From: Psilocybe cubensis
Lineage: Eukaryota
Assembly: GCA_017499595.2 (NCBI GenBank)
Contig: CM039009.1
Span: 2,356,001-2,420,000 of the forward strand
Reading direction: 5' to 3'
DNA: 64,000 nt
The first letter of the stretch is position 1; every line of letters starts with the position of its first letter. The translations under genes were made by a program, and so were the position numbers. Positions 26,814 to 64,000 of this stretch are shown here, in pieces. The notes under the pieces are model-generated. The model worked only from the letters and a program-made list of their open reading frames with translations, was not told where the DNA came from and ran no database searches.

Positions 26814-27760
26814 ATGTATCCAAGACGGTTCCGCTTCACTTCCAACAATCTTGGTCGAGACGTCACTCTTGCACTTATGTTCGATTCTCCAGCAGGAGGT
26901 TCCTTGGACCAAAAGTTCTTCCCTGTTTGCTGGAGTACGTATGGCTACACTATCAGGTTGCGCAGTCAGTTACTCACATTTTTATTAGAGGTTCTTACAT
27001 TTGCGGCCCATGGTATTTCCTCTGCAGCCTTTGAATACGAGGGTCGCACTGGCTTTTTTGAGGCAGAGGTGTGCTCAACCGCACTCCAACGTGATCAATC
27101 ACTTCAACCCTATCCTCTAGATATCTGACAGACACGTCATTCCTCAGAGAGCAGCCTCATGCGAGGTACACCATTTTTATATCATTATATTCTTTCATAT
27201 TTAATGTGCATCGATAGCCTGGACAACGCGTCATCATAACCAATGAACATGACATAGTTGTCGGCAGCGGCGTCCCAGGAGTCATTCAGTGCGTTAACCA
27301 AACAGATGCTCCCATCCACATAGGCGTTGTAAATATTGGTTTAGTATGCACTCTAGTAGAGCGCTGACTGGAGCTATGCAGGGATTGTTTTCGGACGGGG
27401 GGAGTCGTCATGTTCAGCCTATATACCTTTGGAGGGATATACAGTGGGTTATATCACAGTATTCCTTTCCCGAACATATTACTGACCTTGACAAGAGTCC
27501 GCACAACCGTTTCTGTCGAGTTTACCCCTATACTCAGTATATATGCAACCAGAGACTACGGAGGTAAGACTTGATTTTGAGCGTCCTTGATTCTCAGTAG
27601 CTGACACCAAGCTTTCGCAGAAAGGGAGATGATCAAGCTTCCCATCGAATTGCCAGTTATTTACAAGCAAAACATATTGGACTTGGACTCCAGGGAAATT
27701 GAGTACACTGTATCTTTCAACCATGCCACTGGTCTGGTAGAAATATCGAGAGAGAATTAG
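26814..27760 (+). CDS. Uncharacterised family X, paralog 1 (spliced)
   Basis: MYPRRFRFTSNNLGRDVTLALMFDSPAGGSLDQKFFPVCW|RVLTFAAHG...YEGRTGFF...VEFTPILSIYATRDY...IYKQNILDL...GLVEISREN*. Confidence 0.8.
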
Positions 27761-27915
27761 ATTAGATAGGTGATAGCGCTTGGCAATTTTGATGACCTAA
27801 CACCACAAACCAATCAAGAGATCGCAATCGATGTCATTAACCCTTCAAAGTCGAGCGCGCTGATAATGATAGCATGTCCATTTCACTGAATAGCGCCGAA
27901 TTCCGAGATTTTACA

Positions 27916-28099
27916 CACGACGGGCCAGTAGATGAATACTGCAAGTAGACATATGAGTCCACAACGGCAAGTAAAATCCATTTGGCGGCGCTTATTTTTG
28001 AGTTGCGCGACTACAAGGGTCAGGTATGCCCGTTATTTCGCACGACGGGCAGGTAGATCAATGCTGCAAGTAAACATACGAGGCCACAACGGCAAGTAA
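27916..28099 (+). repeat. Imperfect direct repeat, two ~59-bp copies spaced 125 bp apart
   Basis: cacgacgggccagtagatgaatactgcaagtagacatatgagtccacaacggcaagtaa versus cacgacgggcaggtagatcaatgctgcaagtaaacatacgaggccacaacggcaagtaa. Confidence 0.8.
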
Positions 28100-29772
28100 G
28101 TCCTTCTTTGGTGACATATTAGAAGAAAGTCTCTTCAAACTTGGATAGTGGCCACTCTCAATAGAATCAAATCGCTGTCGGCGTCCGACCAAGGCCTGCC
28201 GCACCAATCATGGTCAGCATTGGCTTAACCGACAAGAGCATGCTTACGACGCTCTAGTCAGACGTACGTAAAACAACGAGCAGAATTTGAATAAACCTGT
28301 TCACATGGCATACTATCGCATCTGTCCTTCTCACGCACGGCTGCATTGCACCGGCCACCTGCGCATGCCGTAGCCAGGTGGTGGTAACGACGGTGTCGTC
28401 TTGGAGCCCTGAGCCTTTGAAAATATGCACATAGGCATCTAGTGGCGGCGGGATACCAAAATTGAGCTAATACGCAGCGCTCTCCGGAGTTGATTCCCCT
28501 TCTTATGGTTATTTTAGTGTCCACACCCTACTCCGGATGTAGGATTTTAGACTGGCGGCCATGCTGAAGTTTGATCTGTGATGAAAATAGACATTCTTCT
28601 GGCACTGAACTTGCTCCATGACATTACCTCAAATGCGACGATTCATCCATCTCACAACGACTGTCGTATGTCGTATGTCACGACGGTCCAATAATATCAC
28701 TTGTAAGTCATAGATACACTTGAAGGACTGAATAGAATCGAGGTATGTTGGAGACAGATATGCGAATGAGAGTGTCGACATGGCGAACTTCCTACCATCC
28801 AATCCCAGAACATACCAATACACGCCTTTTGTACGCATTCATCTCTTCCCTTCATCCCATCACGCGACTTGGACATGGATGAAGGTAAACGTGAGCTAGA
28901 CCCATTGACAAGGACAATAGTGCGATGCTTGTGACAGGAGATACGCCGCCGGATCCAATCCCAACCATGTTCCCACGAAGCATGATGATTTCCCAGAGCG
29001 AATGAATCGATGTAAGATCAGACTTGAAGCACTCTGAAAACGTTGCACAGGGCTCGTTCACTGATCCCTCGAGGACAGCCTTATGATTTGAGTAGCGGTC
29101 GTGAACTGACCGCAACTTTATTGGCATCTCGCATTTAAAGCATCGTTGCGCAAATTATACCTCGGGTGGATTGACATGACAGGCCCGCAGTCGCTCATGA
29201 AATCACCATCAAACGTTGACCAACTACGAAGGGATCGAAGTAAGCGTGCGTTCAACGGCAACCTTTGCCACACGCCTTGTTACTCACTCAACTGGATAAT
29301 AATATCAGACAACTTTTCATATTCTTACACAGAACCGTGGGACCGTTCTCATAGCCTGGATATTCATATCTCCAAATCGATCATCCACGTTATCAGTGAT
29401 TAGGCGAGGAGGAGTGCAGTGGGTACAGAAGACCCGGTTATGGTCTGTCGCGAGGATAATTTTACATTGATGGATAAGTTTGGATACGTCTTCCCTTCTT
29501 TGTCAAGACTCTCTAATGAAAAGCGCCATCAAAATGTTGCTTTTTGCTTACCAGCGGGGTTTTTGTGGACGGGAATGAATGGATGTCAACTGGATCTCGA
29601 TTCTCACATCGCACCTTGACGACACCAACAAAATTTGGGTCAAATAGCGCGTGTGGTTCGATCGTCGTTCACCCACCTCCTTGGAATTTCTCTCCAGTCA
29701 CCCCAGCGACCTTGGCAGACTTGTCTTGTCCACAAAAACAAAGATACTAACGAAACCTAGCTTACAATAATC

Positions 29773-30681
29773 ATGTTATTCACGGCCAGCTTCTTGTCTC
29801 TCGCTGCTGCCGCTGTCGCACAGACGGTGGTGAACGTAACTGTTGGCTTCACTGCGTCGGACCCTGGAGGGATTTTCCAGTTCAAGCCCAACAACTTCAA
29901 CGCCACCAACGGCACCGTCATCAACTTCCAGTTTACTGGCGCGTGAGTGGTTGTGCTGTCTTCAATATTCATTCCTCATCGTGGATATAGTCCTGGAAAC
30001 CACTCTGTGACCCAGGCGGCCTTTAATGATCCATGCAACCCTCTCAAGGGCGGCTTTGACTCTGGTTGGGTTTTCGTCCCCAGCGCACCCTCCCCCGTGC
30101 CCCAGTGGAACCTGACTATCACCGATGCCTCGAAGCGTGAGTATATCTCTGGCACATTGCGTGCGTGTGTTGATTGTCCGACCCGATAGCCATCTGGTTC
30201 TTCTGCAAGCAGCTGCTTCCTAGCCCCCACTGTGGTGCCGGTGAGTTGTCCACTCGTTTAAACTTGTCAAATTACTTATGTGTACAGGTATGGTTGGAGC
30301 GATTAACGCACCAACTACTGGGAACACCTTTGCTGCGTTCCAGAAAGCTGCACAGAGTGCTGGCCAAAATGCTGCTTCTGTTGGTGTACGTATATTTTAA
30401 TTGCCTATCCATTATATGTAGCTCATTGTGTATTGTGTATACAGCAAGGCATAAATGGCCTCGTTGGAGTCGGTGCATCTGCCTCTGCCGATGTTGGCCC
30501 CGTGGCGAGTGGTGTGACCGTCATCGCTCTCTCGACCACAATTGCCGGATCTGCCCCCGCCGGCACTCAGACTGCGCCTGCCCCATCTGGGAGTGCCGGT
30601 GGAAAGAGTGGAGCAACTAACGTTGCAGCAAACTCGCTCCTTGCTCTCGGTGCTGCTGCTCTCGGCTTTGTCCTCGTTTAG
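29773..30681 (+). CDS. Secreted cupredoxin-like (extracellular serine-rich) protein, probably GPI-anchored, spliced
   Basis: Signal peptide MLFTASFLSLAAAAVA. Motifs PGNHSVTQAAFNDPC, GGFDSGW and PIWFFCKQLLPSPHCGAGMVGAIN (His/Cys/His/Met type-1 copper pattern). Ser/Ala/Gly-rich tail with a hydrophobic C-terminus. Confidence 0.88.
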
Positions 30682-31779
30682 ATTGTAGGAGTGGATTAAA
30701 TTGGACTTGGACTTTTTCATTCGAATGCAGTCGTTACCCAGTCGTTACTACTAGGGCCTAATACCTTGCGCACTTCTTCTACAAAAGTCTATAGCCATTA
30801 ATTCATTTATATTTTTGGGTGATCGTTACTACTAACGTGATTTGCCAAACAATTTTATCAAACTGTTAGATGCCTGTATACAAAGTCTCATCCCGTAAAA
30901 TTAGTTTTCTGGGCTTCCAGATGCCAAACAATGAAGATAATGATTCCTAATGAGTTTAAACACCGTCTCAAACGCGAAGCGTCCCTCTAGCGTTTACTGG
31001 CGTTGAACGTTGAACACTTATAAGTAATCATTGCCCGACATTAAATTATAAGTCATTGGTATTAAGCCTTTGCATTGGAATGCGAAGCTCTCACGAATGC
31101 CTCTTCCTATGGACTCAGGAGTCCTTATTATTATCTGTGTTGCGAAGTGACTCGGAGATCGGGAGCGTCTGTGTACCTGACATTCTTTCCAAAGGTGCGG
31201 TATCAAAAAATTGATGCTCAGAATGGGTTGATTCTTGTTTTTTGTACCAACACTATATAAAATATATTCCCTAATATTCCGTAAAATTATCTGCGATTGA
31301 CATGGCTTATAATTTGTTAAATTATGGGAATAAAGTAGATTCCAAATGTTAAAAAGTGTCAAGAAGAGTCCAGTGGGCCTATATTATCGTGACACGTTTC
31401 AAAGTCCGCATGTTATATAATCATTTTCTTCGGTTTGGGGGCTACAAGAACAGGACCATTATGAACAGTATCACTATGCGTAAAAATCTTGGAACCTTTA
31501 GATACTTTACTTTTACCCATTATTTCTAGTATTCAATACTAGAAAGTAGATAAGCGCTGCATTCGGGAAAATATGACGATACAAAACCGACCGGGGGCTT
31601 CGTTCGGCCTCGTTGCCTCGAGTCGGATCATTCTGGGTACGCGCCGTCAAAATTGAATTTTAAGATTTAAAACGCGGAGATGAATCGGAGTTTAATCTCA
31701 TCATTCACGTGAGCGGAATGTTTCGCGTCTTGCTCGTCGTTGGCATCGTTCTCCTCGCTTTTGCACGCTGTTCTGCAAC

Positions 31780-35156: not shown

Positions 35157-35959
35157 TCTTAGACGCTATGGTGAGTCACAATTAGTGGTCCCTTATATAC
35201 ACCAGAGAATAGGCGAGGATAATACACTGTACATACAGAGATGAAAATATACATCATTTAACGTTTTGATGAACTCTCATAGCAGAAGCTTTCGACCCTT
35301 GTCAAACTATCATACTCAACACGACAGGTGATTGAGCAATATTAGAGAGCCTGATCGTAGAAAATCACACGAGTTTGCACGGTGGGATTCCGATATGTGG
35401 CTCATATACAGCACAAACTCCAGTCAAACATCATAATCGGGAGAATTGTGTCAGTGACCTGTCATTGAAGCACCTTAGTTCTCCTTAGTTTCTGGCATCT
35501 ATCAAATCGAAACACGTTTTTCGGGTACCTTTCTTTAAGATACCGTTGGAGTTGAAACCTTATGAGGCGTTCAACTTATATGAAAAGTTGTAATCTATAG
35601 CCAGTCACAGAGTCGTACGAAGAAATGATACGAATGTCTACTATTCTATGCTAATTTACTCATGTATTTCAGGAGATAAGTTGAGTCATGATGCTTGTAC
35701 CTAGCTTGCATTTATTTATTATGAAATGAGAGTTCCCTTCCACCACAATTTCTGTCGTTAGGGTTGGCAAAGTTCTGCCAGGGTTTGGCCAAGATAGTGT
35801 TCATTGCCCGTTACCAATGCAAAACTAGTCATCATGATTACTAATATGAATTTATAGGTACCGTGTGCCGATATTGACTCCGATCATCCCCGCCAATTTT
35901 GCATCCAAGGGATAGTACTTATAAGATTCAACAGCCTTATACATACGGATAGGATACCA

Positions 35960-37327
35960 ATGGCCGACGATAGCATCAAATCCTTTCCACCCCTGGTTCT
36001 TGATGTCTTTGGACAGGTACCTGGCTTGAGCAATCTGTACACACAGCTCGCTTTTATATTCTCATTAGACACCCAAATCCAACATGATCAGATCATAGGC
36101 AACCTGAGCAGAGGCCTCCAGTATCTGTCAATCGCTTTCCCATGGCTCGCAGGAGAGGTTGTGAAGGACTCCAGTACAGGTGTTTATTCCATTGTTCCAC
36201 GATATCCAAATCCAGAACTTGTAGTTGCTGACCTACAAGGAAACCCCAATATGGATATTGATGCCCTTCGAACAGCCAGATTCCCATTTTCTCTCCTTCA
36301 CGAATCCGCCATATGCCCTCGAACGACGCTCCATTTATCGACATCCTCCCCTGAGTCTTCCCCAGTGCTAGTACTACAGGCCACTTTTGTCAAGGGTGGG
36401 ATGCTGTTGACCTTTGTGGCGCAACATAATGTCATGGATATGACTTCCCAGGCTCATTTCATCAGGATATTTGACAAAGTATGCAGAGGCAAAGACATCG
36501 ACGATGGAGATATCAAAGGTGGAAGCGTAGACCGAACATGTGCAATTCCTCTATTGGATGAACAGGTACCAGGGCCTATTCCATTCAACCCCTCTCCCGA
36601 GGCGTTTACGCCAACGTGTACTTGGGAATACTTTTCTTTCTCTGGTGAATCACTTTCCTCCCTGAAAAAGCTTGCACAATCAACTTTACCTGCGACTCGC
36701 GGATTTGTGTCGACAGACGATGTGCTTACTGCTTTCGTCTGGCAGCGCATTACTCATGCTCGACTTTCTCGCCTCTCCCGCACCACATCCGTCAGTACTA
36801 TCGGCAGGGCAATAGATCCCCGTCGCTTCATTGGCTTATCCGAGACTTACCCAGGCGTTGTCCAGAATATGTCCTACCATTCATTTTCCGCAAGCGAGCT
36901 TGTGGATTTACCATTAGGAGTCGTGGCCTCAGACCTCCGCGGAGGGCTAACGAAGACTGTCAGCCCATTTTCTTCCGAACTCGACATATCACACTCGACG
37001 AAAGCATTTGCGACTCGGATAGCATTTGCGCAAGACAAGAGCACAGTTCCGTCCGTGACGTCTTCCCTCGACCTGGCCGGATACGATCTAATGCTAAGTT
37101 CATGGGCTAATCAGGGATCATTACATGATCTCACCTTTGGACTCCCGCAGGGCACTCGGTTGGAGGCTATTCGAAGACCCTCGTTTACGCCTGTCGAGTC
37201 TCTTCTATATTTTATGCCACGTGAGACAGATGGAGAAGTGCTTGTTGGTGCATGTCTGCGTGTGGAGGATATGGAAAGACTGAGGGGCGATTCTGTGTTT
37301 ACTAAATTCGGTGAATGGATCGGGTAG
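35960..37327 (+). CDS. Trichothecene 3-O-acetyltransferase-like (Tri101/Ayt1, BAHD/transferase family), intronless
   Basis: LDVFGQVPGLSNLYTQ, HxxxD motif QHNVMDM, FVSTDDVLTAFVW, LSSWA and AIRRPSFTPVESLLYFMPR...LRVEDMERL...FGEWIG follow the Tri101 motif order as I recall it. Confidence 0.9.
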   Translation: MADDSIKSFPPLVLDVFGQVPGLSNLYTQLAFIFSLDTQIQHDQIIGNLSRGLQYLSIAFPWLAGEVVKDSSTGVYSIVPRYPNPELVVADLQGNPNMDIDALRTARFPFSLLHESAICPRTTLHLSTSSPESSPVLVLQATFVKGGMLLTFVAQHNVMDMTSQAHFIRIFDKVCRGKDIDDGDIKGGSVDRTCAIPLLDEQVPGPIPFNPSPEAFTPTCTWEYFSFSGESLSSLKKLAQSTLPATRGFVSTDDVLTAFVWQRITHARLSRLSRTTSVSTIGRAIDPRRFIGLSETYPGVVQNMSYHSFSASELVDLPLGVVASDLRGGLTKTVSPFSSELDISHSTKAFATRIAFAQDKSTVPSVTSSLDLAGYDLMLSSWANQGSLHDLTFGLPQGTRLEAIRRPSFTPVESLLYFMPRETDGEVLVGACLRVEDMERLRGDSVFTKFGEWIG

Positions 37328-37367
37328 TTAAAGTATTCTACAGCGTAGGGATACGATTGCACCTTCA

Positions 37368-38370
37368 CTACCACTTGTTCACCTTTTCGACCTTTATGGC
37401 ATGGCTGTTATGGTCCACAGAGACCTTAAACTCTGATTGCGGAGGAAGATGGAAAATATTTTGCTCGATCAATGCGTCATTTTGGAGGTCAGACGTTACC
37501 ACCCGCGTACCTGTGAATTCAATTCAGAAGCTGCCCTATCTAATGTTGCATCTGCACATACTTTTGTAGTCACTCAATGCATATATCTTGAGAGTTGGAT
37601 CGACCTTAATGGATAGATTATTCCCTTTACTGACACCATGATATTAGCAATATTAATGTCGAGAGTTCTACTCAATTCGACATACGCGACATCTTTCCAT
37701 GTGCAGAATGGGTCGAGCTTCGTTCCCTCCGTGTTAAAGATACCCTGTGCACATGAATCAGCGATGATTAGATTGGTAATGAGTGTACATACAAATGCAA
37801 CCGATGCAGGGTATTCAGTGTCCACTTTACACTGTATCACATCCTTCGTTCCTTTTCCAGCAGCTTCAAGGTAGTTATCGCCGTGTTCGTCAGTCTTTAG
37901 CTCGCAGCGCTCTCCTGTCTATTCACCAATTTGTTACATTATGACACTAATGTAAGTTTTCTCATACCTGACACCGACGGGCGATTCCAGAAGATATCAC
38001 GCTCCCACTATCGACCTACCCAGGTTGAGATTGTAATATTTACAAGGCTGATTTCGCTAAGCATTCTCATACTACTCACCTGTGGTACCAATAGTCCAGT
38101 ATCTGCAGTGTACACAACTTTTGCGTTCTGGTTTTCCCCGGCTGTTATCCCAGCTTTTAATTTCAACACTTCTATGACGGATAGTGAGCAAAAAAAAAAA
38201 GCTGAGGGTGGATTACGGGCCTTACTCCAACAGTTAGGTAACATATCTTTTGACAACTCTCCTTCTGCTATTGGAGTGAACATCAAACACAAGGAAACAT
38301 CTTTCGGCAAGTCCTTTGCAGCAAAGTTCATTGTCCTGGAATCTCCATGTTTGACACGATTTTCAGACAT
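37368..38370 (-). CDS. Uncharacterised family X, paralog 2 (spliced)
   Basis: RTMNFAAKDLPKDVSLCLMFTP...MLPNCW, YTADTGLLVPQ, GERCELKTD, IKVDPTLKIYALSDYK, then ...IKVEKVNKW*. Confidence 0.82.
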
Positions 38371-39233: not shown

Positions 39234-40365
39234 TTAGTTAGATGCCTCAATCTTGATTTCACCAGTTCCTTCATCAATGAATACTTTCCATGTGGTACTG
39301 GCAGGAAGAGCGATAAGGTTCCTCTCAAAGAGCAGAGGAGATTCGATGTCTCCCCTAATCAATTCGGTCGCTGAGTCATGCGTCGTCAGCTTAGTACATC
39401 TTGCTGAAGTTTTGAGTAAGACTGTCAGTACCTTTATAATCTCTGACAGCATATATTTTTAGCCTGGGGGTAAGCTGGATAGAAAGAATCGAATTGTTCC
39501 TAATCACGTAAAGCGTAAATGTGAATAAAATAGAGCGAAAATACGATATCCACAGACGCACGCAACGTTGTCCCACAAGAGTGCAGGTTCCATTTTCGTA
39601 CCTGTAGTGTTGAAAAATCCCTAATAAAGCGGATAAGACTGGGATCTCTGAATTGTACACCATAGTTGCTACACACCATCCCAATACTGGCCGGGCGACC
39701 AGTTGTGTTAAGACATTGCATGGATCCACCGACGCCTGGGACAGGGGCAGTAATAGAGTTTCCATTACCGTTATCATTGATTCTGAGAGTGCACCGCTGC
39801 CCAGTCTTGATTTTGATTGTGTGCTGAGAATTCATACAAGCCCAAAATATTAAGAGTATTAATTACCTCACAAGGTTGCGAGTTTGAAGCGAAAACACGA
39901 TTTCCTGATTCGACCTAAATTTTTCCGGTTCAATATATATACCGACATCGATTGTTAGAGACAACCTGCGGAACAAAGAATCCACTTGCAGCAGTGTACT
40001 CGACACTTGCTGTGCTTAAGCCACCAGCGCTCAAAGAGAGGACCTCTGGTAACCTGTTAGCATTCCATAAAATTGAATATTGATCCCAAAAGACTCACTC
40101 CAGCATACAGGGAAAAGGTCTACGTATAAACGTCCAGCAGCCGGAGGCTCAAACATAAGGAGAAGGTCAATATCTTGGCCAAGATCTCTGGAGAAGAAGG
40201 AGAGGGCTCTGTTATTCCCAGCCACAGCACCGTCAACGAATTTATTGACGGAAATGCTGGCCGTAACAAACAATGGTCAGTATCTTTGTACCACCAGCTA
40301 ATCGTGAAATTATGTGCTAACCTTGCAGCGTCAGAATGCTCATGGGGTGTAGCAGTAGCAGCCAT
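39234..40365 (-). CDS. Uncharacterised family X, paralog 3 (spliced)
   Basis: RALSFFSRDLGQDIDLLLMFEPPAAGRLYVDLFPVCW, YTAASGFFVPQ, GQRCTL, QLTPRLKIYAVRDYK and LIRGDIESPLLFERNLIALP. Confidence 0.88.
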
Positions 40366-40980: not shown

Positions 40981-42053
40981 TCATACTTTCTCCAGGGTGA
41001 CCTTCCTATTCTCCGGATTTGTTGATACATTCCATGTCGTACATTGTCGCAATTCCGAAATATTCCCTTCCCATACAATCTCAGCTTCCACTGCGGTTCT
41101 GATTAACTGTTTCTCTGTGGATTATTCATCAAACAATAGGCTGTACTTCGAGTAACAGTCACATACGTCGATATCGGCGCTGGGCATAAATCTTTAGCAC
41201 CGGATTGAATATAGTTGTTATTATACTGCCATGACTTCACGGCCATACGGTCATCAAAAGCAAGATTGAGTCAATGGAAAAATAAGTACTCAATGTCTTT
41301 CCAGCAGAACAAGGGATCTGCGCTAGATCCATCATCACTACACAGTCCCTATAGCAACATAATGAACGATCTTAAGGTTGTAGCAGCAATGTTAGACTCC
41401 TACCAGTGCAACTTGACCCATGTCTCCGGTATCGTTAAGGCATTGGATAACCCCCTTTTTACCGAGAATAGGCTCAGAAATGTAGTACTCAAAATTTGGG
41501 TTCACTTTGAGCGAACAACGCTGACCGATCTAAACGAAAAACGTCGTACCGTTTCACTCATCGTTGGGAAACAAACATACATCACATTGTTGGAATCGAT
41601 GACCTTCAACTAGATCGTTATCGTCTACCTGTAGTTACGATTCACGTCCTTCAGTACGGATTCTGGAATAAGAGGTGGATTGAGCAAACCTGGGGAGCAA
41701 TCCAAGCCGTTTTTCCAGAGTATTCAATGGTCGCATTACATATCCCAGTTCCGAAAAATGTAATTATTTCTGTGCAAAAAATTGTCAATGGGGATCAAGG
41801 AAAATGTATTTTGGCACAAATACTCCAGTATATAGGAAATAAATCAACATAAGCCTCCCCTGGCTTCTTGGGAAGCTCGAATACCAATAAAAGATCAATA
41901 TCGACTCCGAGGTCCTTGCTTAAGAATTCTAGAGTCCTGGAGTCTCCAATAGCGGATTTTGGATCTACAAAAACATTTATGGGTCTAAATCACTCAAGGT
42001 CAGCATGTTGCTCAATGATTAAGAGTTGTACCCGTTTACGTCGGCGACCTCAT
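40981..42053 (-). CDS. Uncharacterised family X, paralog 4 (spliced; absent from the ORF track; start uncertain)
   Basis: RTLEFLSKDLGVDIDLLLVFELPKKPGEAYVDLFPIYW, YSGKTAWIAPQ, GQRCSL, FNPVLKIYAQRRY, then ...RKVTLEKV*. The start needs a gtaaac donor after MRSP. Confidence 0.78.
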
Positions 42054-42512: not shown

Positions 42513-43655
42513 CTAGGCTTCCTCAATGACGACTTTTCCAGTCCCTTCATCAATCGACACCTTCCATTCTGTCGAATTGGGAAGGGAAATAAGATTCTTT
42601 TCGAAAAGAAGTGGCGACTCGATGTCACCCCTGATTAGTTGGGTTTCTATGTGGATATGGAGAATAAATCAATTGTCGAGGACCGCGTCGATATATTACA
42701 ATTATCACCTTTGTAATCACTGACGGCATATATCTTCAGCTTTGGTGTAAGCTCCGTGGAGAGAGTGCTGTCCTTTCTGTATCGATATCAGAGAGCAGTA
42801 GATAAGGGATGATGATGGGAAGAAAATACGCAATATTGTTCCAAACAAGCGCTGGTTCCATTTTTGTTCCTGCTTCATTCATGAATCCCTAAGCAACGAC
42901 ATGAATTAAAACGCTTTTTTGATGTGAAGTTTAAGCAACGCACAATCCCGATACTTGCGGGACGCTCCGTTTCATTGACGCATTGTAAGGCTTTAGGAGC
43001 TTTACTGGGGACAGCTTTGGTGATGTAACTCCCATTCTTGTTCGCATTTGTGCGAAGAGCGCATTTCTCTCCAGACTATTGTCACATTGTAAGAGAGCGC
43101 CAGTTATTGCATGAGATCCGTTAACTGACCTGGCAACGCTGAGCATTTGATGCCGAGACACGGTTTCCCGACCTGTTCTACAATCCCATAGCTTGAAATC
43201 ACGTAACGAATAGAAAGTTGCTGAACATACTTGCGGAACGAAGAACCCAGTGTCCGCTGTGTACTGCACACTTGCTGAGCCGAGTCCGGTAGCGCCAAAC
43301 GAGATGACCTCTGATAATTAATGTCAAATCTTACTTAGGAATAATCTTGGTGCTACTTACTCCAACAAACTGGGAACAGGTCAACATATAATTTTCCCAC
43401 CTGCGGAGGCTCAAACATGAGGAGCAGGTCTAACTCCTTGCCGAGGTCATTTGATAAAAATTCGAGTTCTCTAGTGTTTCCGCCAGTGGTAACAAATGAA
43501 TTAAGGGTGCTGGATGCACTCTTGTAAGCAAATTTTTCAACGATATCTCTAGTGATTTCTGTCAGAGATACACTTCTGCATACAGTATGTGTAGAATCAT
43601 GCACTGACGTTGGGGAGTTAGAAGCAGAAATATTTCCGGAATCTTTGTCCGCCAT
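42513..43655 (-). CDS. Uncharacterised family X, paralog 5 (spliced)
   Basis: RELEFLSNDLGKELDLLLMFEPPQVGKLYVDLFPVCW, YTADTGFFVPQ, ELTPKLKIYAVSDYK and LIRGDIESPLLFEKNLISLP...VVIEEA*. Confidence 0.88.
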
Positions 43656-46600: not shown

Positions 46601-47494
46601 TACCAATGTCCGACAACACCACTTGTGATCTTTTCCCATAATATTGAAGGCCAGGACTGGGCCATATTCCAGGATCCTGGAGGGACAGCTCCAAAGTCGC
46701 TTCAAACCTGATTAATATGATTATCCTGACCGGCAGAATGAGTAGGAATACTTCTACCCCAGGAAAGCATTGCCACAGAAGCTCTCAGTGCTGCAACCAG
46801 TAATCATGATGCAATCGATCCGAAGATTTTCTTCCTTTTGATAGCAAGTATTTTGGGTATAACCCCACAAAGCATGTAAAGATGTTAACCGTGTTACAAA
46901 GAAGCTTTGTAGCACTCGCAAAGGATCGGAGGGTGATTACGCCCGCGCTGTATATTTGGAAACATCAAGCTGCAATGTAATGATTTGTTGATAACTGTGG
47001 AAATCAAACTTTTATGTTTTTGTAGTCACGCTCGTGGTACAGTGGCATTGCTTGATAGTAGGTCAATCTTATATAATGAGTTACTATAAAGCTATCTGCT
47101 ACGACTACGTGTGAGTAAATGGGACAGGTATTGCGGTACAAACGAAAGTCTTCTAGGTTAATCCCAGTTCAAATGAATACGTCAAGGGTGTAGTAGGACC
47201 CTGGGTATCGATAACGGGTCTATTTCAAGGGTTTGTGGTCATAATTCTGCCTTGTTCGGTTCGGGAAATTTTATTTTCAACTTTACTGCAAGTAATATGA
47301 ACATCTAAAACGAACAAGTGAATAATTTCACACATTTTTATAGCTGAACGAACGTATAAAATCCAAACGTCGTTTCTGTATACATACCAGCCCAACATTT
47401 GTACTTCAAAATCCTAGTAAGCCTCCACCATCGCATTGGAAGATTTCCCGAGATTCATCTTCAAATTTATATCTTACCACAGCACGCAAATTCG

Positions 47495-48205
47495 ATGTTG
47501 AACTTTGTCAGTCTCGCTTCGCTCGCTTTGGCAGCATTGTACTTGGTATCCCCAGTTATAGGCCACGGTCATGTAACCGTCCCCCCCAGTCGCCAAGAAC
47601 GTTGCCGCGCTGGAGAAGTACCGAACTGCGGTGGCGCCCAATGGGAACCACAGAGTGTCGAAGGTTTAGCGGGGTCATTTGCCTGTAACGGGGATGGAGC
47701 ACGTTTTCAAGAACTCAACGACAATTCCTTATTCCAGAACGCCTATTTCACTGTCCCAGAAGGCACCGAAGAACTCGCCTTTACTTGGGTATTAACCGCA
47801 CCGCACAGGACCCTGGTTTGGGAATACTTCGTACTCACCCAGGACAACACCCTTTTGCTTTCGGAGCCAGGATTTAACGTCACCCCTCCGGCAATCGTGA
47901 CCCACCCGGTTCCATTGAATGGAATTAAAGGGAGGCAGACAGTCCTTGCGCGATGGACCATTGGCGATACCCAGAACGCTTTCTATTCCTGTGTCGATCT
48001 CTTGATCGGAGCTGCTGAGACAGCCACTGCCGTTGCTGGAGCAGTCGCTACACCAATGCCCGTTGCGATGCCCTACGGATTCCATGATTCACTCGGCCAT
48101 GAGAATTCCGCCAACCGCTCGGACTCTTCCAGTGCTGAATCGAGTCGCGCGGGTGCACACAAGGCCATCCAAAACTTCCTGTACATTCAGGGACCACAGT
48201 CCTGA
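47495..48205 (+). CDS. AA10 lytic polysaccharide monooxygenase (chitin-binding type), intronless, secreted
   Basis: Signal peptide, then N-terminal His in HGHVTVPPSRQERC, WEPQSVEG, second His in LTAPHRT, and WTIGDTQNAFYSCVDL with the axial Phe typical of AA10. Confidence 0.93.
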   Translation: MLNFVSLASLALAALYLVSPVIGHGHVTVPPSRQERCRAGEVPNCGGAQWEPQSVEGLAGSFACNGDGARFQELNDNSLFQNAYFTVPEGTEELAFTWVLTAPHRTLVWEYFVLTQDNTLLLSEPGFNVTPPAIVTHPVPLNGIKGRQTVLARWTIGDTQNAFYSCVDLLIGAAETATAVAGAVATPMPVAMPYGFHDSLGHENSANRSDSSSAESSRAGAHKAIQNFLYIQGPQS

Positions 48206-50589
48206 AGCATCGACTCCTTCCCTTCCCCCGCGGAGCAACGGAGAGTGTTTCCATAATCATTTTCATCGACTGATTATACATAGTTGGTCGTTAAATTTCC
48301 ATAGTTTGAGTTAGTCATTAAAAATGCACTAAAAAGAAATTTTTGTACTTTCCAAATAGCCAAATGTAAAATTGAATTCGGAATCATCAAATCGACACAA
48401 GTGAGTTGGATCTATTGATGAGCAATTATTAATTAAGTATTGCTCCTTACATTCAAGGCCCATCATTATCACCGTTTTTTAACAAGCAAGCAGGTACACG
48501 GCCCAACCATCGTTGGACCATACGCTTATACAATCAAATTCAATTCCGTTCAATCTGCTCCATGTTCGACATACCGGGCACCCCGTATACCACAGACTGG
48601 AAGATGATTGGTGAATCAGTACGTTCGGAGTGATTATGTTGAGACGGAGATCAAATGTTGTCTGGGAAACTCGGTGGCAATGCAAATGGAGCTGACGTAA
48701 TCCTGAGACAAGTGCCAAACGTTCGAATGAATCCATAAAAGTCGTACATCGTATAAGTGAGTATGCAATGATTCAGGGCAAGGAAAGATCGGTATCAAAC
48801 AGCAATATACCGACTATGTATACCAGTTCTTTGGATCCTAGCAACGACCAACCTGCTAGTCATCGGCCAGAAAGAAATTGACAGTCTACATTCCGTTGGT
48901 CGCAATATGAGGTTTTGGTATGAGATGCAATGTCTGAATCAGGAGTACAGGGAATGAGCCCTCGGGAAAAGTCGTCACTGTAAATTGGTCGGTTTTGCTA
49001 CCTAGCTGTGAGTGATCATTTCCCCTCTTCATGCCGGAACTCCTTCATTGAGAATTGGTGTCTTCCCAGACATTCCCCGTTGTGCTTACCACTCACATGT
49101 ACAATCAAATCTATGTTCAACATGGCTCGCTCTCGTAAAATGGAGAAAGAACAGCGAGTTGAATATAGATTCGAATGTACTTGTGAGAGGAACAGGGGTT
49201 AACGTATAAAGGAAGACTCGAGGATTGAGGAATGTATGGATTTGGACAAAGCAGAGGGCACGTTTCCTTTAGTAATGAAGGAATATGGTACGTTATATTC
49301 AATCCATGAGCCAGATTTGATGTTTAAGCGGACACTAGAGAACGTGAGTCTAAAAGATCAAGGAAAGGAACTTATACTGCTTCCACTAGTGCTGAGGTCA
49401 AAGAGATGGGGTGTACTATGGGGAAAGCCTGATAAACTATCCGGATATTTATGCCTTTCATGTAATCATTCCAGCTTATTGTGTGCTCAACTTGCATATT
49501 TCCAGAAACGACTTGAAAGTTTATGGGCCCATCTTTCATACAAAGTTATAGCCTGGGCCACTCGGACTGCATTTCTGACGCCTTGGCCTCATGTCCCAAA
49601 CAGCGATATCAATTGAGGAAGTCGTCGGTGTCTGTGGGCCACTGCGCTGCCTGTAACATCACAAAGACACCCATTGGCACATTCACTCCTGAGTCATCAG
49701 AGACGTACAATCCTGAGCGGTGATAAGCCGTGTCGCGCTACGAGCGCGTTCCCACGACTGCGCGTTCCCACGATATGCCGCGCGCGGCATCAATCATCGG
49801 CCTTTACCCACGAACTTCGACATCCACGACATCCTCCTCCCCTCGTCAACCAGATCGCCCTCCACCGACATTATTACTGTTAGGCGCCTTCAGCTTTACC
49901 CCCTATTGCGCGCGACACGCCCCCGATCAAGCCTCGTGGAGTAGTCAACATGTTTCCCACGTTTCGGCGCGTTCCCACGCTTAGGCCGTCGCGATCGACT
50001 TAGTGAAAATGCGCAAATTAGAGCGCTTCCTCCCGCCTCATGTCTCGAAAACAACTCCTATTCCACTTATTCTCGCACATTCGATAGCTTTCTATTCCCC
50101 CTATTCTACATTATGTGCAGAAGAATCTTGGTTCACAGATACTAGACAAATAGAGTAACTTTTGGCCCCTTAGAATACCATTCTCCCCAAGTATCTCTCA
50201 TTTTTGCGAAATACCATCAATTTTCTGTGTTTCTCTGCGTCGTCTCGAGTTGCGTTTAAGTATACATCGTACTGCGTCTACCAGCGTCGTTTCCCATTGT
50301 CACCTTGCATTTTTGCGCATTGGACGCTGCCACTCGGTTTCCTGCTTGAAATTAATCAGTTATGTGGGTCAGTAGTGTACAAATGGTGTATCTAAACTAT
50401 GGCTGACTTGAGGTGCAAAAAATCCCGAATTGGCCGTGAAGTCAACTGTGGCTGAACTCATCCCAACAGCACTAAAAGACAGAAGCTCTTACAATTAGTG
50501 AAGGGCACAGGAAATTTACCTTGCAGGAGAAGCGAGGGAAGTGCAAGGGAAGTGCAGTGCAGGAAGTGCGGGCAGTGCGACGTGCGCTA

Positions 50590-51528: not shown

Positions 51529-52520
51529 TTAAATAAGGTCCTGATGAATCTCGTTTCCAGTGACGTGGCTGGCTCTTTCAACATGATCTCGTCTGGGTCG
51601 CTGGTAAAGAGATATAAAATCCGTCTTCAGGGATTTCCAGACCGGCTTTCCGGCTTGCATCTGTTTCCTTGTATAGTATATCCCAAGGACTCCTATAACC
51701 AATCCCAAGACTCCCAAAGGGATTGAAGAAGCTAAACTAGCGATATCGCCATTGGATAGACCATTGGATTGCTCTCCAGTGGATGGTGCTGTTGCTGTGG
51801 GTGTCGCCGGTACATTTGTTATGGATGTGCTTGCAAAGAAGGGAGCTGCTGTTGTCGATGTTGCAGTGTTGGTATCATAAATGGTAGTACTGCTCTGCGA
51901 TATGATGTGACCAGCGTTTGAAGTAGATAAAAATGTGGTCGAAGATCCAGTGCTCTTACTTGATGTCCCCTGGATGGTAGCTACAGGACGGAGGAAAAAT
52001 ATATCCCACCCATCGCTGTCCAAGATTATCTGCCCAATATTAGCGTAAATAAATATTTGACGAACACAATTACACACCGACTCAGGTAAGCCAGAGGATG
52101 GATTAATTCCAACTACCCACCAAGGTCCTGCATCATTGCTATTTGCAGAGAACCTGGAATAAGATAGTTTGTTAGCATCATGGTCAACCGCATGTAAGAC
52201 TTCTTGGGACACAACTTGTACCATCCTAGTCCAAATGTCGATGGGGACAGATACCACAGAATGGGTGTTGGCTCTGTCAATGTATTATTTATGTCCACCG
52301 CTGAGCGGCCTATGCACATTCCTGAGCTGACACTGCATACAGATCTCAGGCTCGAGCTTTGGTCTCCAGATACATTCCATTGCTGGCTGGTCGCTCCTGG
52401 AAGAAAAACCGAGATTGTGGGCTGGAACTGTGAAGTAGGATTAAGGGTTATATAGTACTCTACATTCTGTGGTTGATAAAAGAGATTGAATACTCCAACT
52501 GGTATAGCCATGGATCCCAT
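51529..52520 (-). CDS. Single-pass membrane protein: possible ricin-B/beta-trefoil-like N-domain, Ser/Thr stalk, TM helix (spliced)
   Basis: A QxW-like motif SQQWNV in the N-domain, a Ser/Thr-rich tract, TM IPLGVLGLVIGVLGIYY followed by basic residues. No clear signal peptide. Confidence 0.65.
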
Positions 52521-55636: not shown

Positions 55637-55655
55637 ATATAGTGAGCTTGTAAAT

Positions 55656-56894: not shown

Positions 56895-57593
56895 TCATGG
56901 ATTACCATACCAGCGAAACTTTGGAGAAAGACAAGGTGGCGTAAATCTAGGGGGTCCTGGGATCGACGGAGGCGTGTTTCTAGGGGGATCTAGGGTCGAA
57001 GTGGAGGTTGAAGTTGAAGTTGAGGTGAAAGTTGAAGTTGAAGTTGAAGTTGAAGTTGAAATAGAAGTCGGTTTCCCTTCAACAAACAGATCTATACAAG
57101 CGTAAAACGCATTCTCGGTATCCCCAATGCTCCAACGTGCAAGGATGGTGTGTTTTCCCTTGATGCCTTTCAAAGGAACGAGTTGGGTGGTAGGGTTGGC
57201 GGGAATAGTATTAAACGCCTGAACGGAAAGGAGTAAGGTATTGTTCTGGGTGAGAACAAAGTATTCCCAAGACTGGGTGCGGTGCGCTGTTGTGAGAACC
57301 CAGGTCATGTTGAGAGAGTCGACGCCGGGGGGAACGACGAGGAAATGATCTGCCCATAATGCCTCATCGGCAAGCTCGTGAAATCGGTCTCCACCGCCGT
57401 CGCAGCGGAAGGATCCTTTCTTGGCCTCCACGCTCTGAGGCTCCCATTGAATGTTTCCGCATCCAGGAACCTCACGCTTCTGGCAGCGCTCCTGTCGACT
57501 GGGCGGTATGGTAACATGACCGTGGCCCATTGCGGGAACCACCGCATTCATCGCCGCAACGACAAGGAACGCAACACTAATGACTTTGAACAT
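56895..57593 (-). CDS. AA10 lytic polysaccharide monooxygenase, intronless, secreted, with a (ST)n/Pro-rich tail
   Basis: Signal peptide, then HGHVTIPPSRQERC, WEPQSVEA, LTTAHRT and WSIGDTENAFYACIDL. A GTTGAA microsatellite encodes STSTST. Confidence 0.93.
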   Translation of the reverse strand: MFKVISVAFLVVAAMNAVVPAMGHGHVTIPPSRQERCQKREVPGCGNIQWEPQSVEAKKGSFRCDGGGDRFHELADEALWADHFLVVPPGVDSLNMTWVLTTAHRTQSWEYFVLTQNNTLLLSVQAFNTIPANPTTQLVPLKGIKGKHTILARWSIGDTENAFYACIDLFVEGKPTSISTSTSTSTSTFTSTSTSTSTSTLDPPRNTPPSIPGPPRFTPPCLSPKFRWYGNP

Positions 57594-58952
57594 GAGGTTC
57601 TTCCAGATCGTGGTTAGTATGAGCTGTTTGCAAAGCTATACGAGAGACTGCACACCTGTGGATATCGGCAGAGGGAAATATGAAAGTAGAAAATGCTGCC
57701 CAGACCTCCAGTTTATGTATTTTCTACAACCAGAAAAGAGGAACAACGTCGTTGTATCCGACACATTCATATGTTTTAGTAAAGTCTCTGAGGCAGGGCG
57801 ACTTGTAGACGCTGAAACTCTGTGCCCTATCTGTTAGCCAGTGTGGTAGAAATGTGAATTGACATCGCTTTTACGACAAGCGTGGACGGAAGATATCGTA
57901 GTGATGTATCTGGTTTCTTATTCAAATCAATGGGAGTGAATTAAGCCCCACAGACTATTAAACCTTTGGACGTTTGCCTTACCGTCACACGGTGAAACAT
58001 TCATATGAATGCAACACATTAGTGCAATAAAATCTGATGAAGGCAGTTTGACTACCACCTCCTCACGCATGAAAACCACTTCCCAGCTCACGCCCTCATG
58101 CAACTACTATCAATGCCGCTTCGTTTTTGGTCGAGGCATAACTTGCTTACCCATGGACGGAACATGCTGTATGTCTACGCCTGCTGCCCCTTGATGGATA
58201 TCACCGTCTCCCTGAGGCAGGGTGATCTCGATTGATGTCTGGTTGTGGGATGATGATCAATGTTTGACTTGGGTGCATGCTTAATTGTTCAACACAATCT
58301 CTTATATCCGAACGCTACGTAAGTGTAGGTCCCGACGATTGATGCAACACCGGAACGAATAAGTACCGGAGACAAAGCTGGGAAACATAACACATAATGG
58401 GCGTTAATGGTGTTTGGATTGATTTCACTTGCATAGGTTTCGAATAACAGTACTAAGTCTGTAGTTGCTGAAAGGTCTTGAAACCCATTTTCGACAACAA
58501 GGATAGGCGTTTGTACACACAATACCCTCATGTAATATTTTATCCTTTGACTCGATTTCCGTACACTGCGGGACCGGAATGTGAACCCTCCGTACATTTC
58601 AGGTACTCAGGCAACGCTCCTGTAATTAACTCTCGTAGTTCAGTTTTTCTATATGAATTCAGAAAAGATTCTAAAAAAAAACATGATACTGCAATACAAT
58701 CATGTCACTGACGTACAAGTAGGCCAGTCTAGACAGGGCCAATCTTGTCCTATGTACTCCCAGGCCTCTAGATATCCATCCCCATGCAATATTTACTTGC
58801 GTTTCATCAGACTAAATTTCCGTTCTGTCAATTATTTCTCTTAGTCATGGCAACACCAAAGGCCTATAAAATGTGCACGACATTTTTTATCTCCTCCTTA
58901 CCTTCACTACCAAGCTCCAACACTCTAGTGTCCTTCTTGTAATTGCAACAAT

Positions 58953-59976
58953 ATGACCGCCGACTCCAGCACCGACCAAGAAAGGAGGATTTCATTCTAT
59001 TACGATGAACTGGACAAAGAAGTCGAGTTGGTATTAGCGTTCGGCTCCGCTCAAGATTCCTACGGAGACACGGAATCTCTCTGCTGGAGCAAGTGATGCG
59101 CATCTTGGAATATTCAACAAATGCTGACTTCATTTACACAGGGGTAGTAAAATGGAGAGCCCATTGCGGCCCCGGTGTAGCGACTTTCACGTACACTGGA
59201 AAAACAGGCTTTGCTATCCCAAGTGTCAGTTTTAACCTGGCGATCATACAGCTTTGAAAGTAGCTTATGTATAGCGTGTCTGTAGGCTGATACCGGACGC
59301 GTTGTAGATGGATCGCCCACGGTTCTTTGCCAGGTATAATTAAACATCATTTGGCGCATTTGCGATACCAATTGATATTTTTATCTAGGCTGGCCAGCGA
59401 TGCACAATGGCGACGAATGATGAAGGCAAAAACTATTTCACGCCTGCAGTTGATGATGATAATCTCCGAGCTATTTCATGCCACATTAAAACTGCGTCCC
59501 CGGCTGATATCGCTTTTGTATGTCAATTGTTTACATTCCTCACTTGGTATACCGTGTTGCTTAAACCTTTGATTTGTAGGGAACAACGAATGGGCTTAAC
59601 GACAAAGAAATACTACCCATAATGAGGTACAGAAACCTTGGGTACGTTAGAGCGGTCTAATCATTCTGTTCCCACATTGATTCCCTAACTGCGCTACCTA
59701 GGCCGGATTGTACCCTTTCCGTGAAATTAACTCCTATCTTGCGCGTCTATGCCGTTAAGGGGTACCATGGTGAGCCAGTCCTCTGTGAACTGCGTTTATA
59801 CGTGACTCTGAACATATCCTGTTGATTAATAAATAGGTCAAGATGTTATCACTCCAGACTTAGACTCGAACGTAGTACTTAGTGTGGACCTTACCTCACT
59901 TCCTCAATTTACGCAATGGGGTGTTTCCTTTGACAAGGATAGCGACCGCGTCATAATTACGCGTCAAACTGATTAA
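58953..59976 (+). CDS. Uncharacterised family X, paralog 6 (spliced; first intron GC-AG)
   Basis: RRISFYYDELDKEVELVLAF...SLCW, YTGKTGFAIPS, GQRCTMATNDEGKNYFT, VKLTPILRVYAVKGYH, then ...RVIITRQTD*. Confidence 0.8.
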
Positions 59977-61445: not shown

Positions 61446-62414
61446 CTACGCGCGGACAATCTTGATCTCCTTGCTGACTGGGTCACGGATGACATTCCAG
61501 TTAGTCTCGTGAGGAAGCGTCATCAGATCTACCTCAAACTTGACTTCAGAATGCACATCGCCTTTGATGATTTCACTCGCTGTGGATTGAAATTCAGTAA
61601 CTGAGACGGCTTGGGTCAAGCGAATATTTACCTTGGTAGTCGCTAACAGCGTATATCTTAAGGATGGGTGTAAGCCTGACAGCCAATGTGCTTCCTATTC
61701 TGAAAACGAAGATCGGATATGAGCCCAATCTGCCCTGGAAGGTAAAGCGATACATACCCCAGGCCAGTCCACTTGAATACAGGGTTGACAGTAGTTTTGT
61801 CTGCATTAAACAGACCCTGAGAGGATATTTCAGAGTCCAGTATTTTGAAGAACGATTACTCGACGTACAAATGCAACCTCGGCCGGTGTGGATGTTTGAA
61901 CTTTACATTGAACAACGCCCTTGGATCCGACTGCCGCCTTTGTAAGGTAATTGTTTCCCTTGTCGTTGGTCATTAATGCACATAGTTCCCCAGTCTGTGG
62001 AAGATGAGTGTCAAAAACAGAATATGACCTGCAGCAATAAACATGTACCTCGCAACTCTCTACATTATATGCAGAGACAATGTTGTCAGTATCTTTCTGT
62101 GAGGATGATTTAGATTTCATTCGGCAATGTGACCGATATTAATTGACTTACTTGAGGAGCCACGAATGCAGTGCTGGCGCTGTAGTGAACCGTGGCTGCA
62201 CTGACACCGGATGAGTGAAACTGTAGGACCTCTGTGTTATATGTTAGCTGCGAAGTTGAAATTTACAATGAAACAACTTACTCCAGCAAACGGGGTACAA
62301 GTCTGAGTACAGCTTTCCCTCAGCTGGCGGGGTGAACATAAGCATCAAGTCGATCTCCTTTCCGAGGTTGTTTGCCCTGAAGGTGAGCTGTCTGGCATTT
62401 CCAGTGATAGGCAT
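61446..62414 (-). CDS. Uncharacterised family X, paralog 7 (spliced)
   Basis: MPITGNARQLTFRANNLGKEIDLMLMFTPPAEGKLYSDLYPVCW, YSASTAFVAPQ, GELCALMTNDKGNNYLT, RLTPILKIYAVSDYQ, then ...EIKIVRA*. TATA-like tataaa upstream. Confidence 0.86.
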
Positions 62415-63615
62415 TGCGAATGAGGGAGAATTGACGAAAAGAGTCGTTGCAATTTGAGATGGAAATGTCTCCTGGAGCGACTTTCCAATTTATACCATTC
62501 AGGCGCTCATGTACGCTTGGTGTAAGATTCCAGATCTGTGTTTGTTCGAGCATCTTTAGTGTAACACAAGACTCTCGGCGATAGAGGAGTGCCGGACCAA
62601 CGTCTTTTTAAACGATGTCGATACAATTTGACTTGCCATACGCTCCCCTGGTTTGATATAAAGTAAGCCGATTGATAAACGCCTGCACCTACATGATAGG
62701 TGTTCCTTGATCTCGAGGGCTACTTACCGCATGTCGATCAATTTCCCCATAATGATGAAGGAGCACAAACATTACCGGAACCGCGTAGCCACTTAGGCAC
62801 CAATGTAATGGTACAGGAACAAACACCAAGTTTATTTTACACTTTCAAAAACTTAAGACCCTTGCACGTAAACATGTCCCATCATTTTGGTATTACTTAA
62901 CACAATTGTCACCACCTCGTGTGTAGTACAGGAGTACCGGACCATCAAATCTCCGAGTCTTTACGAGAAATCCGGATTCCATATTGGTGACAGAGAGTGG
63001 GAAAGTCAGTCATGCCCTGACCTGATCGCTCTAATATCCCAGAATGGATACCCCCGTATGGATGTGGGCGTTAAATTCTGCGGGAGAGCAGGTGTGTGTC
63101 CTGGGTTCGAGGCATACTGCGGTCAATGAATAACATCGGAATACATGTGTCTTCAGACAATGTTTCGACGTCCACTACACCATATTTTTATTAATTTTGC
63201 TGCTGTCGTCGTTTATTTTGTGCCTTAATGCTCTTTAGTTCACGTTGCTGTACCAAAATGTCTGCATTATGTGCCTCTTACCCTGGTATCTTCCATGCTC
63301 ACTTCAGTATGAATGGTTTTCGGTTTTGTAATTACGTGCTCACAGATAAACACTGACGCTGCGACGATGAATCGGAGACCCCTAATGTTTACATCATATC
63401 CGCATTAAAAAATAGCATTTCCAATGTTGAGCATGTACCATAAGAATTATGGGAAACGGAGAAGGCATTGGTTTTCGCAATCAGTTCAAATTGCACATTT
63501 TGGAAAACTGGAAAGACTTATGTCTCCATTAAAATTGATGAAAAGCGCTATGAATAGGGTACTAGGAAACTATTTAACGACGAGACATAGGTCAACGTCC
63601 GCCTAATATACGTGA

Positions 63616-64000
63616 CTACTTGGCGCGCACAATCTTCAACTGCAAGCTGCTAGGATCACGGACAACATTCCAGGTAGTTTCGTGAGGGAGTTGAGTAAGG
63701 TCTTGCCTAAACAACTCGTCCGTGTTGACATTTGCTGTCAAGATTTCGCTAGCTGTATCATCCACATATTGTCAGCCAAATCTTGTACGGTGATAGATAT
63801 GAATTAATGCTGTACTTACAATGATAGTCGCTGACCCCATAGATTCTCAATACGGGGGTGAGTTTTACAGCCAGAGTGGAATCGACACTGAAAAACGGGC
63901 ACTGTGAATGAAGACGTTCTGGGGGGTAAAGCCTCAAGTAGTAGCTTACCCAAGTCCGGTCCATTTAAAGATGGGTGCAACCGACTGATCCTTGCCCATG
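63616..64000 (-). CDS. Uncharacterised family X, paralog 8 (3' part; the gene continues beyond the window)
   Basis: PIFKWTGL|..KLTPVLRIYGVSDYH|SEILTANV...LTQLPHETTWNVVRDP...LKIVRAK*. Confidence 0.82.

Follow-up and report, generated by a model that had tools for sequence, protein, structure and literature searches.

A gene array of Psilocybe cubensis encodes all-beta proteins of an Agaricomycete family that probably shares ancestry with bacterial RhiA

A 64-kb stretch of the Psilocybe cubensis genome (contig CM039009.1, positions 2,356,001 to 2,420,000 of the forward strand; this whole stretch of 64,000 nucleotides is called the window below) carries an array of related genes whose products, in our assessment, stand about an even chance of representing, within the RhiA/PSMB superfamily of beta-sandwich proteins, a fungal branch that extends across the Agaricomycetes and consists of proteins that would probably bind small molecules inside the cell. 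The narrower proposition, that the fungal family and the RhiA superfamily share ancestry, is one we consider quite likely. RhiA, an abundant protein of rhizobia, has been on record since the 1980s without an assigned function. A preliminary description of the same DNA, made from the sequence alone, had pointed to a loose resemblance of the array proteins to RhiA-like proteins, and this resemblance is now backed by a controlled profile-profile alignment, by language-model features, and by a full-length similarity of predicted structures.

RhiA was taken from plasmid pRL10 of Rhizobium johnstonii and 302 homologues were collected, with the Pfam domain RhiA_N (PF27136) present on all 120 of the homologues listed among them. 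When an alignment of 77 fungal sequences was compared with 32 RhiA sequences using hhalign, the two matched over 162 collinear columns with an E-value of 9.1e-5 and a probability of 59%. A broader bacterial alignment (36 sequences), enlarged with divergent paralogues found at 43 genome loci and in a sample of 400 Gammaproteobacteria, yielded an E-value of 2.4e-5, a probability of 75%, and a score of 39.7 over 161 columns, against control scores of 13.2 for the reversed bacterial alignment and of at most 19.9 for 40 block-shuffles. These comparisons give a significant, collinear alignment of the family with RhiA/PSMB over most of the domain, which we accept with reserve because the hhalign probability is below 90%.

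The language-model features of the Atlas gave a score of 0.94 (212/256 shared) for P0001, the protein of array copy 3, and of 0.95 (219/256 shared) for P0033, a family member from Galerina, and in both cases the best clusters were bacterial. RhiA_N is found on 10-37% of the members of P0001's best clusters, and its share in the top clusters is 16% of the members for P0001 and 37% for P0033. At the structural level, the Atlas model of P0033 matched four bacterial clusters with template-modeling (TM) scores of 0.73-0.76 over 194-200 residues, essentially the full length of the protein, while the next cluster, which is unrelated, had a TM score of 0.37. One of these four clusters has RhiA_N on 16% of its members, and the others carry automatic names only. 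An AlphaFold2 model of P0001, based on a 77-member alignment, had a predicted local distance difference test (pLDDT) value of 92.2 and a predicted TM score of 0.84, and shows 28 disordered residues (1-28) followed by 17 beta-strands, with no helix of four or more residues, as the all-beta fold anticipated in the preliminary description would have it. This model superseded a previous one that was based on only 14 Psilocybe sequences (pLDDT 66.4) and for which Foldseek was uninformative. When the good model was compared with the PDB using Foldseek and VIA-align, only generic beta-sandwiches of Ig-like or transthyretin-like type were retrieved, among them the extracellular domain of PepT1/2, the luminal domain of HGSNAT, TssJ, 5-hydroxyisourate hydrolase, and pilins, and this search did not single out any one family, whether of lectins, of toxins or of another kind. 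Judging from the predicted models, the family would have the same fold as the RhiA-like bacterial proteins over its full length.

The array was mapped by tblastn, using as queries the five exon-bearing frames of copy 3 (39.2-40.4 kb) against the window. Related exons, in the order of those of copy 3, were found on the plus strand at 26.8-27.6 kb and 59.4-59.8 kb, and on the minus strand at 37.6-38.3 kb, 41.0-42.0 kb, 42.5-43.5 kb, 61.5-62.4 kb, and 63.8-63.96 kb, with E-values for the first exon from 1.6e-10 to 1.8e-22 in a database that consisted of the 64-kb window only. An exon-wise hmmsearch of the window with the family profile returned an identical map. The eight copies already described for this stretch, on both strands, were all recovered, and a relic at 50.3-50.5 kb was added by both searches as a ninth piece. 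The copies, with lengths in amino acids (aa) and positions on the family profile where available, are the following:

Copy 1, 26814..27760, plus strand: full-length, seven exons, protein P0029 (208 aa), exact exon mapping; profile positions 33-240.
Copy 2, 37368..38370, minus strand: full-length, JR316_0012707 (P0024, 226 aa), exact mapping; profile positions 24-240.
Copy 3, 39234..40365, minus strand: full-length, eight exons, JR316_0012708 (P0001, 240 aa), the protein modelled by AlphaFold2.
Copy 4, 40981..42053, minus strand: full-length open spliced frame, 229 aa in the model, with all profile segments; transcribed.
Copy 5, 42513..43655, minus strand: full-length, eight exons, JR316_0012709 (P0009, 251 aa), exact mapping; transcribed.
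Copy 6, 50265..50485, minus strand: relic of two exon-sized pieces (profile positions 71-99 and 98-119).
Copy 7, 58871..59976, plus strand: open spliced frame of about 230 aa, N-terminal half strongly diverged, start uncertain.
Copy 8, 61446..62414, minus strand: full-length open frame in a spliced model; profile positions 26-240.
Copy 9, 63616..64000, minus strand: 3' part only, with the last two exons and the stop codon; profile positions 176-240.

The frame of the first exon of copy 3 is 100% identical to the NCBI entry "hypothetical protein JR316_0012708", and an exact match links the annotated proteins P0029, P0024, P0001, and P0009, in this order, to copies 1, 2, 3, and 5, with exon breaks that coincide at six alignment positions. 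The copies have, in fact, six core introns in common (after CW, after PQ, after C-E/Q, after IG-x, after the VA/IA position, and after DYK), four of which had been named before, and the motif blocks quoted with them are the conserved blocks of our alignment A1. Spliced frames are open in copies 1-5, 7, and 8, based on annotated proteins and spliced models combined. The search for spliced models recovered P0001 exactly for copy 3 and provided open frames for copies 4, 7, and 8; for copies 1, 2, and 5, where the splicing script retained some in-frame introns, the exon sets come from the annotated proteins and the RNA joints. Copy 4 has no counterpart among the annotated proteins that we retrieved. 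Copy 6 is regarded as a relic because only profile positions 71-119 are covered (tblastn E-value 2e-8; hmmsearch 31.8 and 15.0 bits), and no further segment of the family lies nearby. The C-terminal half of copy 7 corresponds to an annotated partial protein, P0117 (126 aa), which maps exactly to 59407-59973, and the segments of its N-terminal half reached only 12.9 and 9.4 bits in hmmsearch. The exon set of copy 8 is provisional, as its model keeps one in-frame, stop-free intron unspliced. Copy 9, whose stop codon is at 63616-63618, leaves the window with the rest of the gene, and four more members (JR316_0012716, JR316_0012719, JR316_0012722, and JR316_0012724) that are recorded on a contig with the length (2,562,776 bases) of the one that carries JR316_0012707-09 do not map onto the window; they are therefore located beyond it, and the array runs on, as had been suspected. 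No N-terminal hydrophobic stretch was seen in copies 1-5 and 8 when their sequences were read directly, without a signal-peptide predictor, in agreement with the earlier statement that signal peptides are missing, and we infer a cytoplasmic location for these proteins. Several in-frame, stop-free introns are present in copies 1, 2, 5, and 8 (e.g., 26934-26990, 43548-43607, and within 61.9-62.1 kb); they could permit isoforms by intron retention or be a matter of chance, given an intron size of about 50 nt.

Evidence of transcription came from two contig sets of one study, X1 and X2, flagged "RNA?" as a guess, and from a DNA run, X3. We treated X1 and X2 as transcript assemblies because their contigs skip GT..AG introns that X3 retains. 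Four CT..AC joints (as read on the plus strand), that is, four of the seven introns of the model, were found for copy 4 in contigs of both X1 and X2, and six such joints, in agreement with the annotated exon ends, were found for copy 5 in a single X1 contig. These joints agree with the copy 4 model and with the copy 5 annotation, so that transcription, with splicing at the predicted places, is seen for at least two copies. Copy 1 had low contig depth in X1/X2, and copies 2 and 3 had no contig cover there, which is not to be taken as a sign of silence.

With regard to the range of the family, a profile made from 14 Psilocybe proteins was searched with HMMER against 1.84 billion representatives, as the preliminary description had proposed for the spliced proteins, and matched 332 cluster representatives at E ≤ 1e-3, 179 of them at E ≤ 1e-10. 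The range was judged from the best 150 of the 332 matches, 30 of which were looked up, so that absence from other fungi is not implied. Organism names were available for 24 of these 30, the remaining six being metagenome-only records, and all 24 are Agaricomycetes, from the Agaricales to the early-branching Cantharellales and Sebacinales (Psilocybe, Galerina, Leucoagaricus, Mycena, Marasmius, Paxillus, Lentinus, Trametes, Panus, Meripilus, Heliocybe, Ramaria, Ceratobasidium/Rhizoctonia, and Serendipita), with records that read "hypothetical" or "unnamed" protein throughout. A word-based homology search returned Psilocybe proteins only. No named domain had been recognized in the array proteins before, and none was found in the Pfam copy that we scanned: nine exon frames, four Psilocybe proteins in full length, and 34 relatives, of which the family portion was used, gave nothing at E ≤ 1, except for stray hits well under their cut-offs. 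The NCBIfam scan and a profile search of the PDB sequences returned nothing. No internal duplication was detectable by hhalign, which aligned the N-terminal half to the C-terminal half with a probability of 3%. Most conserved columns hold hydrophobic residues, Gly or Pro, which is what a structural core would show. Six forms from Polyporales (P0042, P0050, P0076, P0116, P0142, and P0163) are about twice the usual length (412-493 aa), and consist of an N-terminal family domain, a low-complexity linker, and a second, C-terminal region; this second region is conserved across P0042, P0050, P0116, and P0163 and has no Pfam match.

Pairwise amino-acid identity between six of the window copies ranges from 23 to 63%. 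The Nei-Gojobori estimate of synonymous divergence (dS) exceeded 2 or was not computable in all 15 pairs of window copies, and the ratio of nonsynonymous to synonymous divergence (dN/dS) was 0.13-0.37 in the seven pairs that allowed one. Because dS is saturated, dN/dS is close to uninformative on diversifying selection. The word "diversifying", used for this family in the preliminary description, thus holds for the old divergence of the copies, but not for gene-wide positive selection, no sign of which was seen in the Nei-Gojobori ratios of these six copies, with their saturated synonymous sites. To judge from these sequences, the array copies are old. A midpoint-rooted FastTree phylogeny of 51 family sequences, read by its topology without inspecting support values, groups all the Psilocybe copies into a single clade; the Galerina sequence, P0025, and P0026 branch just outside, and P. 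cubensis members are mixed with those of P. cyanescens in several subclades. The expansion thus seems to be particular to the Psilocybe lineage and, in large part, older than the split between these two species. Members of P. cyanescens also share small contigs, as is the case for CVT25_004853 with 004854, 014784 with 014788, and 007172 with 007174.

As for function, our proposal comes from the PSMB family, described as Pectobacterium RhiA homologues of about 209 aa with a "butterfly-wing" beta-sandwich, encoded in an island of four paralogues (PMC13490719, 2026). According to that paper, PSMB1a binds solanidine with a Kd of 0.103 uM and salicylic acid with a Kd of 9.23 uM, and increases tolerance to such compounds. 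Because PSMB1a, the sole bacterial relative tested biochemically, is reported to bind these two ligands, we propose by analogy, and tentatively, that the fungal proteins may be non-enzymatic intracellular binders of small metabolites, a possibility to which we assign somewhat less than an even chance. As far as can be told, the family works like RhiA/PSMB. Cytoplasmic proteins with a single all-beta domain and a length of about 210-250 residues would then, inside the hypha and without catalysis, bind or sequester small metabolites of hydrophobic or aromatic character, and the old tandem paralogues might differ in their preference for ligands or in the timing of their expression.

Several results weigh against placing the array within the RhiA/PSMB superfamily as a set of small-molecule binders. 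The precomputed Pfam field is "-" for all 17 of the Psilocybe family proteins, and our local Pfam copy gave no RhiA_N match for the family either, though the model is possibly absent from that copy. The hhalign probabilities, at 59-75%, are lower than the 90-95% that is usual for confident homology, and a shallow, Psilocybe-only profile aligned to a single RhiA sequence had a probability of 2%. Nothing was found at E ≤ 10 when the fungal profile was searched against pRL10 and five RhiA-carrying bacterial genomes, with a first-pass filter that may miss loci, and tblastn of P0001 against 72,556 plasmid records gave no match. Furthermore, the structural link is one between predicted models on both sides, and the matched bacterial clusters carry RhiA_N on a minority of their members only. 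On the functional side, the literature describes RhiA as small, cytoplasmic, and highly expressed, with a function still to be assigned (PMC2275737), the claim that the bacterial relative binds ligands comes from one 2026 paper (PMC13490719), and the conserved columns of the fungal family are mainly core residues. The resemblance to RhiA could, in fact, be due to chance, if a beta-sandwich born in the Agaricomycetes had converged on the same topology with no ancestry in common with the bacterial proteins, and the missing RhiA_N match, the empty profile searches of pRL10 and of the five genomes, and an hhalign probability that never reaches 80% would all fit such a scenario, as would Atlas feature scores of 0.9 or above, which 4 to 10 in 100 shuffled proteins also attain. 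We regard this scenario as improbable, however, because three kinds of evidence converge on one bacterial family, collinear sequence alignments span most of the domain, the TM score drops from 0.73 to 0.37 right below the RhiA-like clusters, and the shuffling and reversal controls are far under the real score.

Even if ancestry with RhiA is granted, the proteins might do something else. They could be structural or developmental proteins of the cytoplasm that have no small ligand (scaffold, storage or protein-binding proteins), with the RhiA-like fold reused as a stable beta-sandwich. This would agree with conserved columns that are nearly all core hydrophobics, Gly, and Pro, with the protein-interaction and scaffold sandwiches that make up the best solved matches (the PepT1/2 extracellular domain, TssJ, and pilins), and with the second conserved C-terminal region in the long forms of Polyporales, but it leaves unexplained why many diverged and constrained paralogues have been retained over a long time, and the only member of the superfamily to have been tested is reported to bind small molecules (PMC13490719), which leads us to hold such a role for quite unlikely. 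The preliminary description had favored a cytoplasmic lectin- or toxin-like defence protein. Such a protein would be stored in the fruiting body and act on fungivores when eaten, and its paralogues would diversify to track different targets. This inference found no support, as the Pfam models of lectins and toxins (ricin-B, galectin, fruit-body lectin, aegerolysin, and actinoporin), and those of pore-formers, were unmatched by the exon frames, the full-length proteins, and the 34 relatives, and we consider a defence role of this kind unlikely. Neither of the two outcomes that had been set in advance as speaking against the original idea was encountered, in that no match to a housekeeping family was found and transcription was seen for at least two copies. 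Intracellular binding of small molecules by a fungal branch of the RhiA/PSMB superfamily is the explanation that we carry forward.

Unrelated genes are interspersed with the copies of the array, and others lie upstream of it; among the neighbors is also a gene for a Cbp3-type chaperone. Those that could be placed are the following:

35858..37327, plus strand: TRI-like/BAHD-type acyltransferase, open frame of 489 residues (Pfam TRI-like_N 1.6e-47, Transferase 2.7e-18).
29505-30822, plus strand: signal-peptide-bearing, Ser/Ala-rich gene, spliced, with four GT..AG introns; X1 depth 473.
47360-48202, plus strand: LPMO_10 (PF03067) gene, Pfam E-value 6.5e-18.
56898-57635, minus strand: LPMO_10 (PF03067) gene, Pfam E-value 1.1e-17.
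7094-8626, minus strand: AMP-binding (adenylate-forming) enzyme gene, by Pfam; upstream of the array.
19098-21333, minus strand: dihydroxyacetone kinase gene (Dak1/Dak2), by Pfam; upstream of the array.

The acyltransferase gene, which is transcribed (an unspliced X1 contig covers 35909-37362), converges on copy 2, with a gap of about 40 bp between its open frame and the stop codon of that copy. The two kinds of genes probably adjoin in P. cyanescens too, as suggested by a partial gene model of that species, P0038, in which a TRI-like N-terminus is joined to the family domain. This neighborhood is to be taken as a lead towards a possible functional link between the acyltransferase and the family. 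The gene at 29505-30822 has by far the deepest X1 contigs; its exon frames have no Pfam match, and its product has a signal-like hydrophobic stretch at the N-terminus and a Ser/Ala-rich tail that ends in a hydrophobic segment, which looks like a glycosylphosphatidylinositol anchor signal in its sequence. LPMO_10 is a mostly bacterial and viral family, and its two mushroom copies, which lie inside the array on opposite strands and about 9 kb apart, are therefore noteworthy. No link to the family is apparent for the AMP-binding and Dak1/Dak2 genes. The sole lectin-like hint in the window is an open frame at 52116-52520 (minus strand) that matches RicinB_lectin_2 with an E-value of 0.068, far under the cut-off, and is probably noise. 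The psilocybin gene cluster was also considered and rejected, as no Pfam match to a P450, methyltransferase, kinase or decarboxylase was found among open reading frames of at least 110 aa in the window, a search that multi-exon genes could escape.

A more far-reaching scenario can be drawn, to which we give little credence at present. The RhiA-type beta-sandwich might have been acquired early in the evolution of the Agaricomycetes, possibly by horizontal transfer from soil bacteria, and its descendants might have become intracellular binders or chaperones of secondary metabolites and xenobiotics, with the paralogues of the Psilocybe array, which lies beside a BAHD-type acyltransferase, being tuned to the small molecules of the genus itself, for example indole alkaloids or their reactive oxidation products. 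Were this true, the ligands of the fungal proteins would also reveal the role of RhiA, which has been an open question since the 1980s. With a large, intron-bearing branch in eukaryotes, the RhiA superfamily would reach across domains of life. The family is found in at least 14 named genera of Agaricomycetes and was unmatched in our Pfam copy, and a "dark" mushroom gene family would receive a name and, with ligand binding, a hypothesis that can be tested; for Psilocybe in particular, a genus-specific expansion of candidate metabolite-binding proteins is brought to attention. The first biochemical activity for a relative of RhiA was reported only in 2026 (PMC13490719). The practical value of these findings is moderate, as the function is inferred. 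In the literature, judged by titles and the openings of abstracts and with most subscription journals outside the coverage, no fungal RhiA-like protein was seen among the hits listed, and the locus tags looked for were not found in any paper; automated clusterings of structures may already connect the fungal family and RhiA.

When the fungal family is compared with RhiA of Rhizobium leguminosarum/johnstonii, a product of the rhiABC operon, commonalities and differences are both evident. The two are of similar size (231 aa for RhiA and about 210 aa for the fungal core), both are single-domain, all-beta, and apparently cytoplasmic, and their profile alignment is collinear, with a Trp after the third strand, a GIG-type turn, an FTP-x-x-x-Y strand, and a C-terminal T/N-x-W among the motifs that align. 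On the other hand, the aligned identity is only about 19% and the fungal proteins lack a Pfam RhiA_N match; the fungal genes are eukaryotic and intron-rich, with six or seven spliceosomal introns, and are spread over a whole fungal class; and they have no quorum-sensing context, nor were homologues of RhiB or RhiC found in the window, where all tblastn E-values were above 1. Bacterial RhiA-like genes also occur as two or three adjacent, strongly diverged paralogues at several loci (L021, L028, L031, L033, L036, L038, L043, and L046/L049/L050), and three stand in a row in bacterial genome G027, which parallels both the fungal arrays and the island in Pectobacterium. The PSMB family, which we know by its description only, differs in that it belongs to a plant pathogen and has host compounds as targets, whereas Psilocybe is a saprotroph, and resembles the fungal family in that it underwent a lineage-specific tandem expansion, as the latter did in Psilocybe (PMC13490719).

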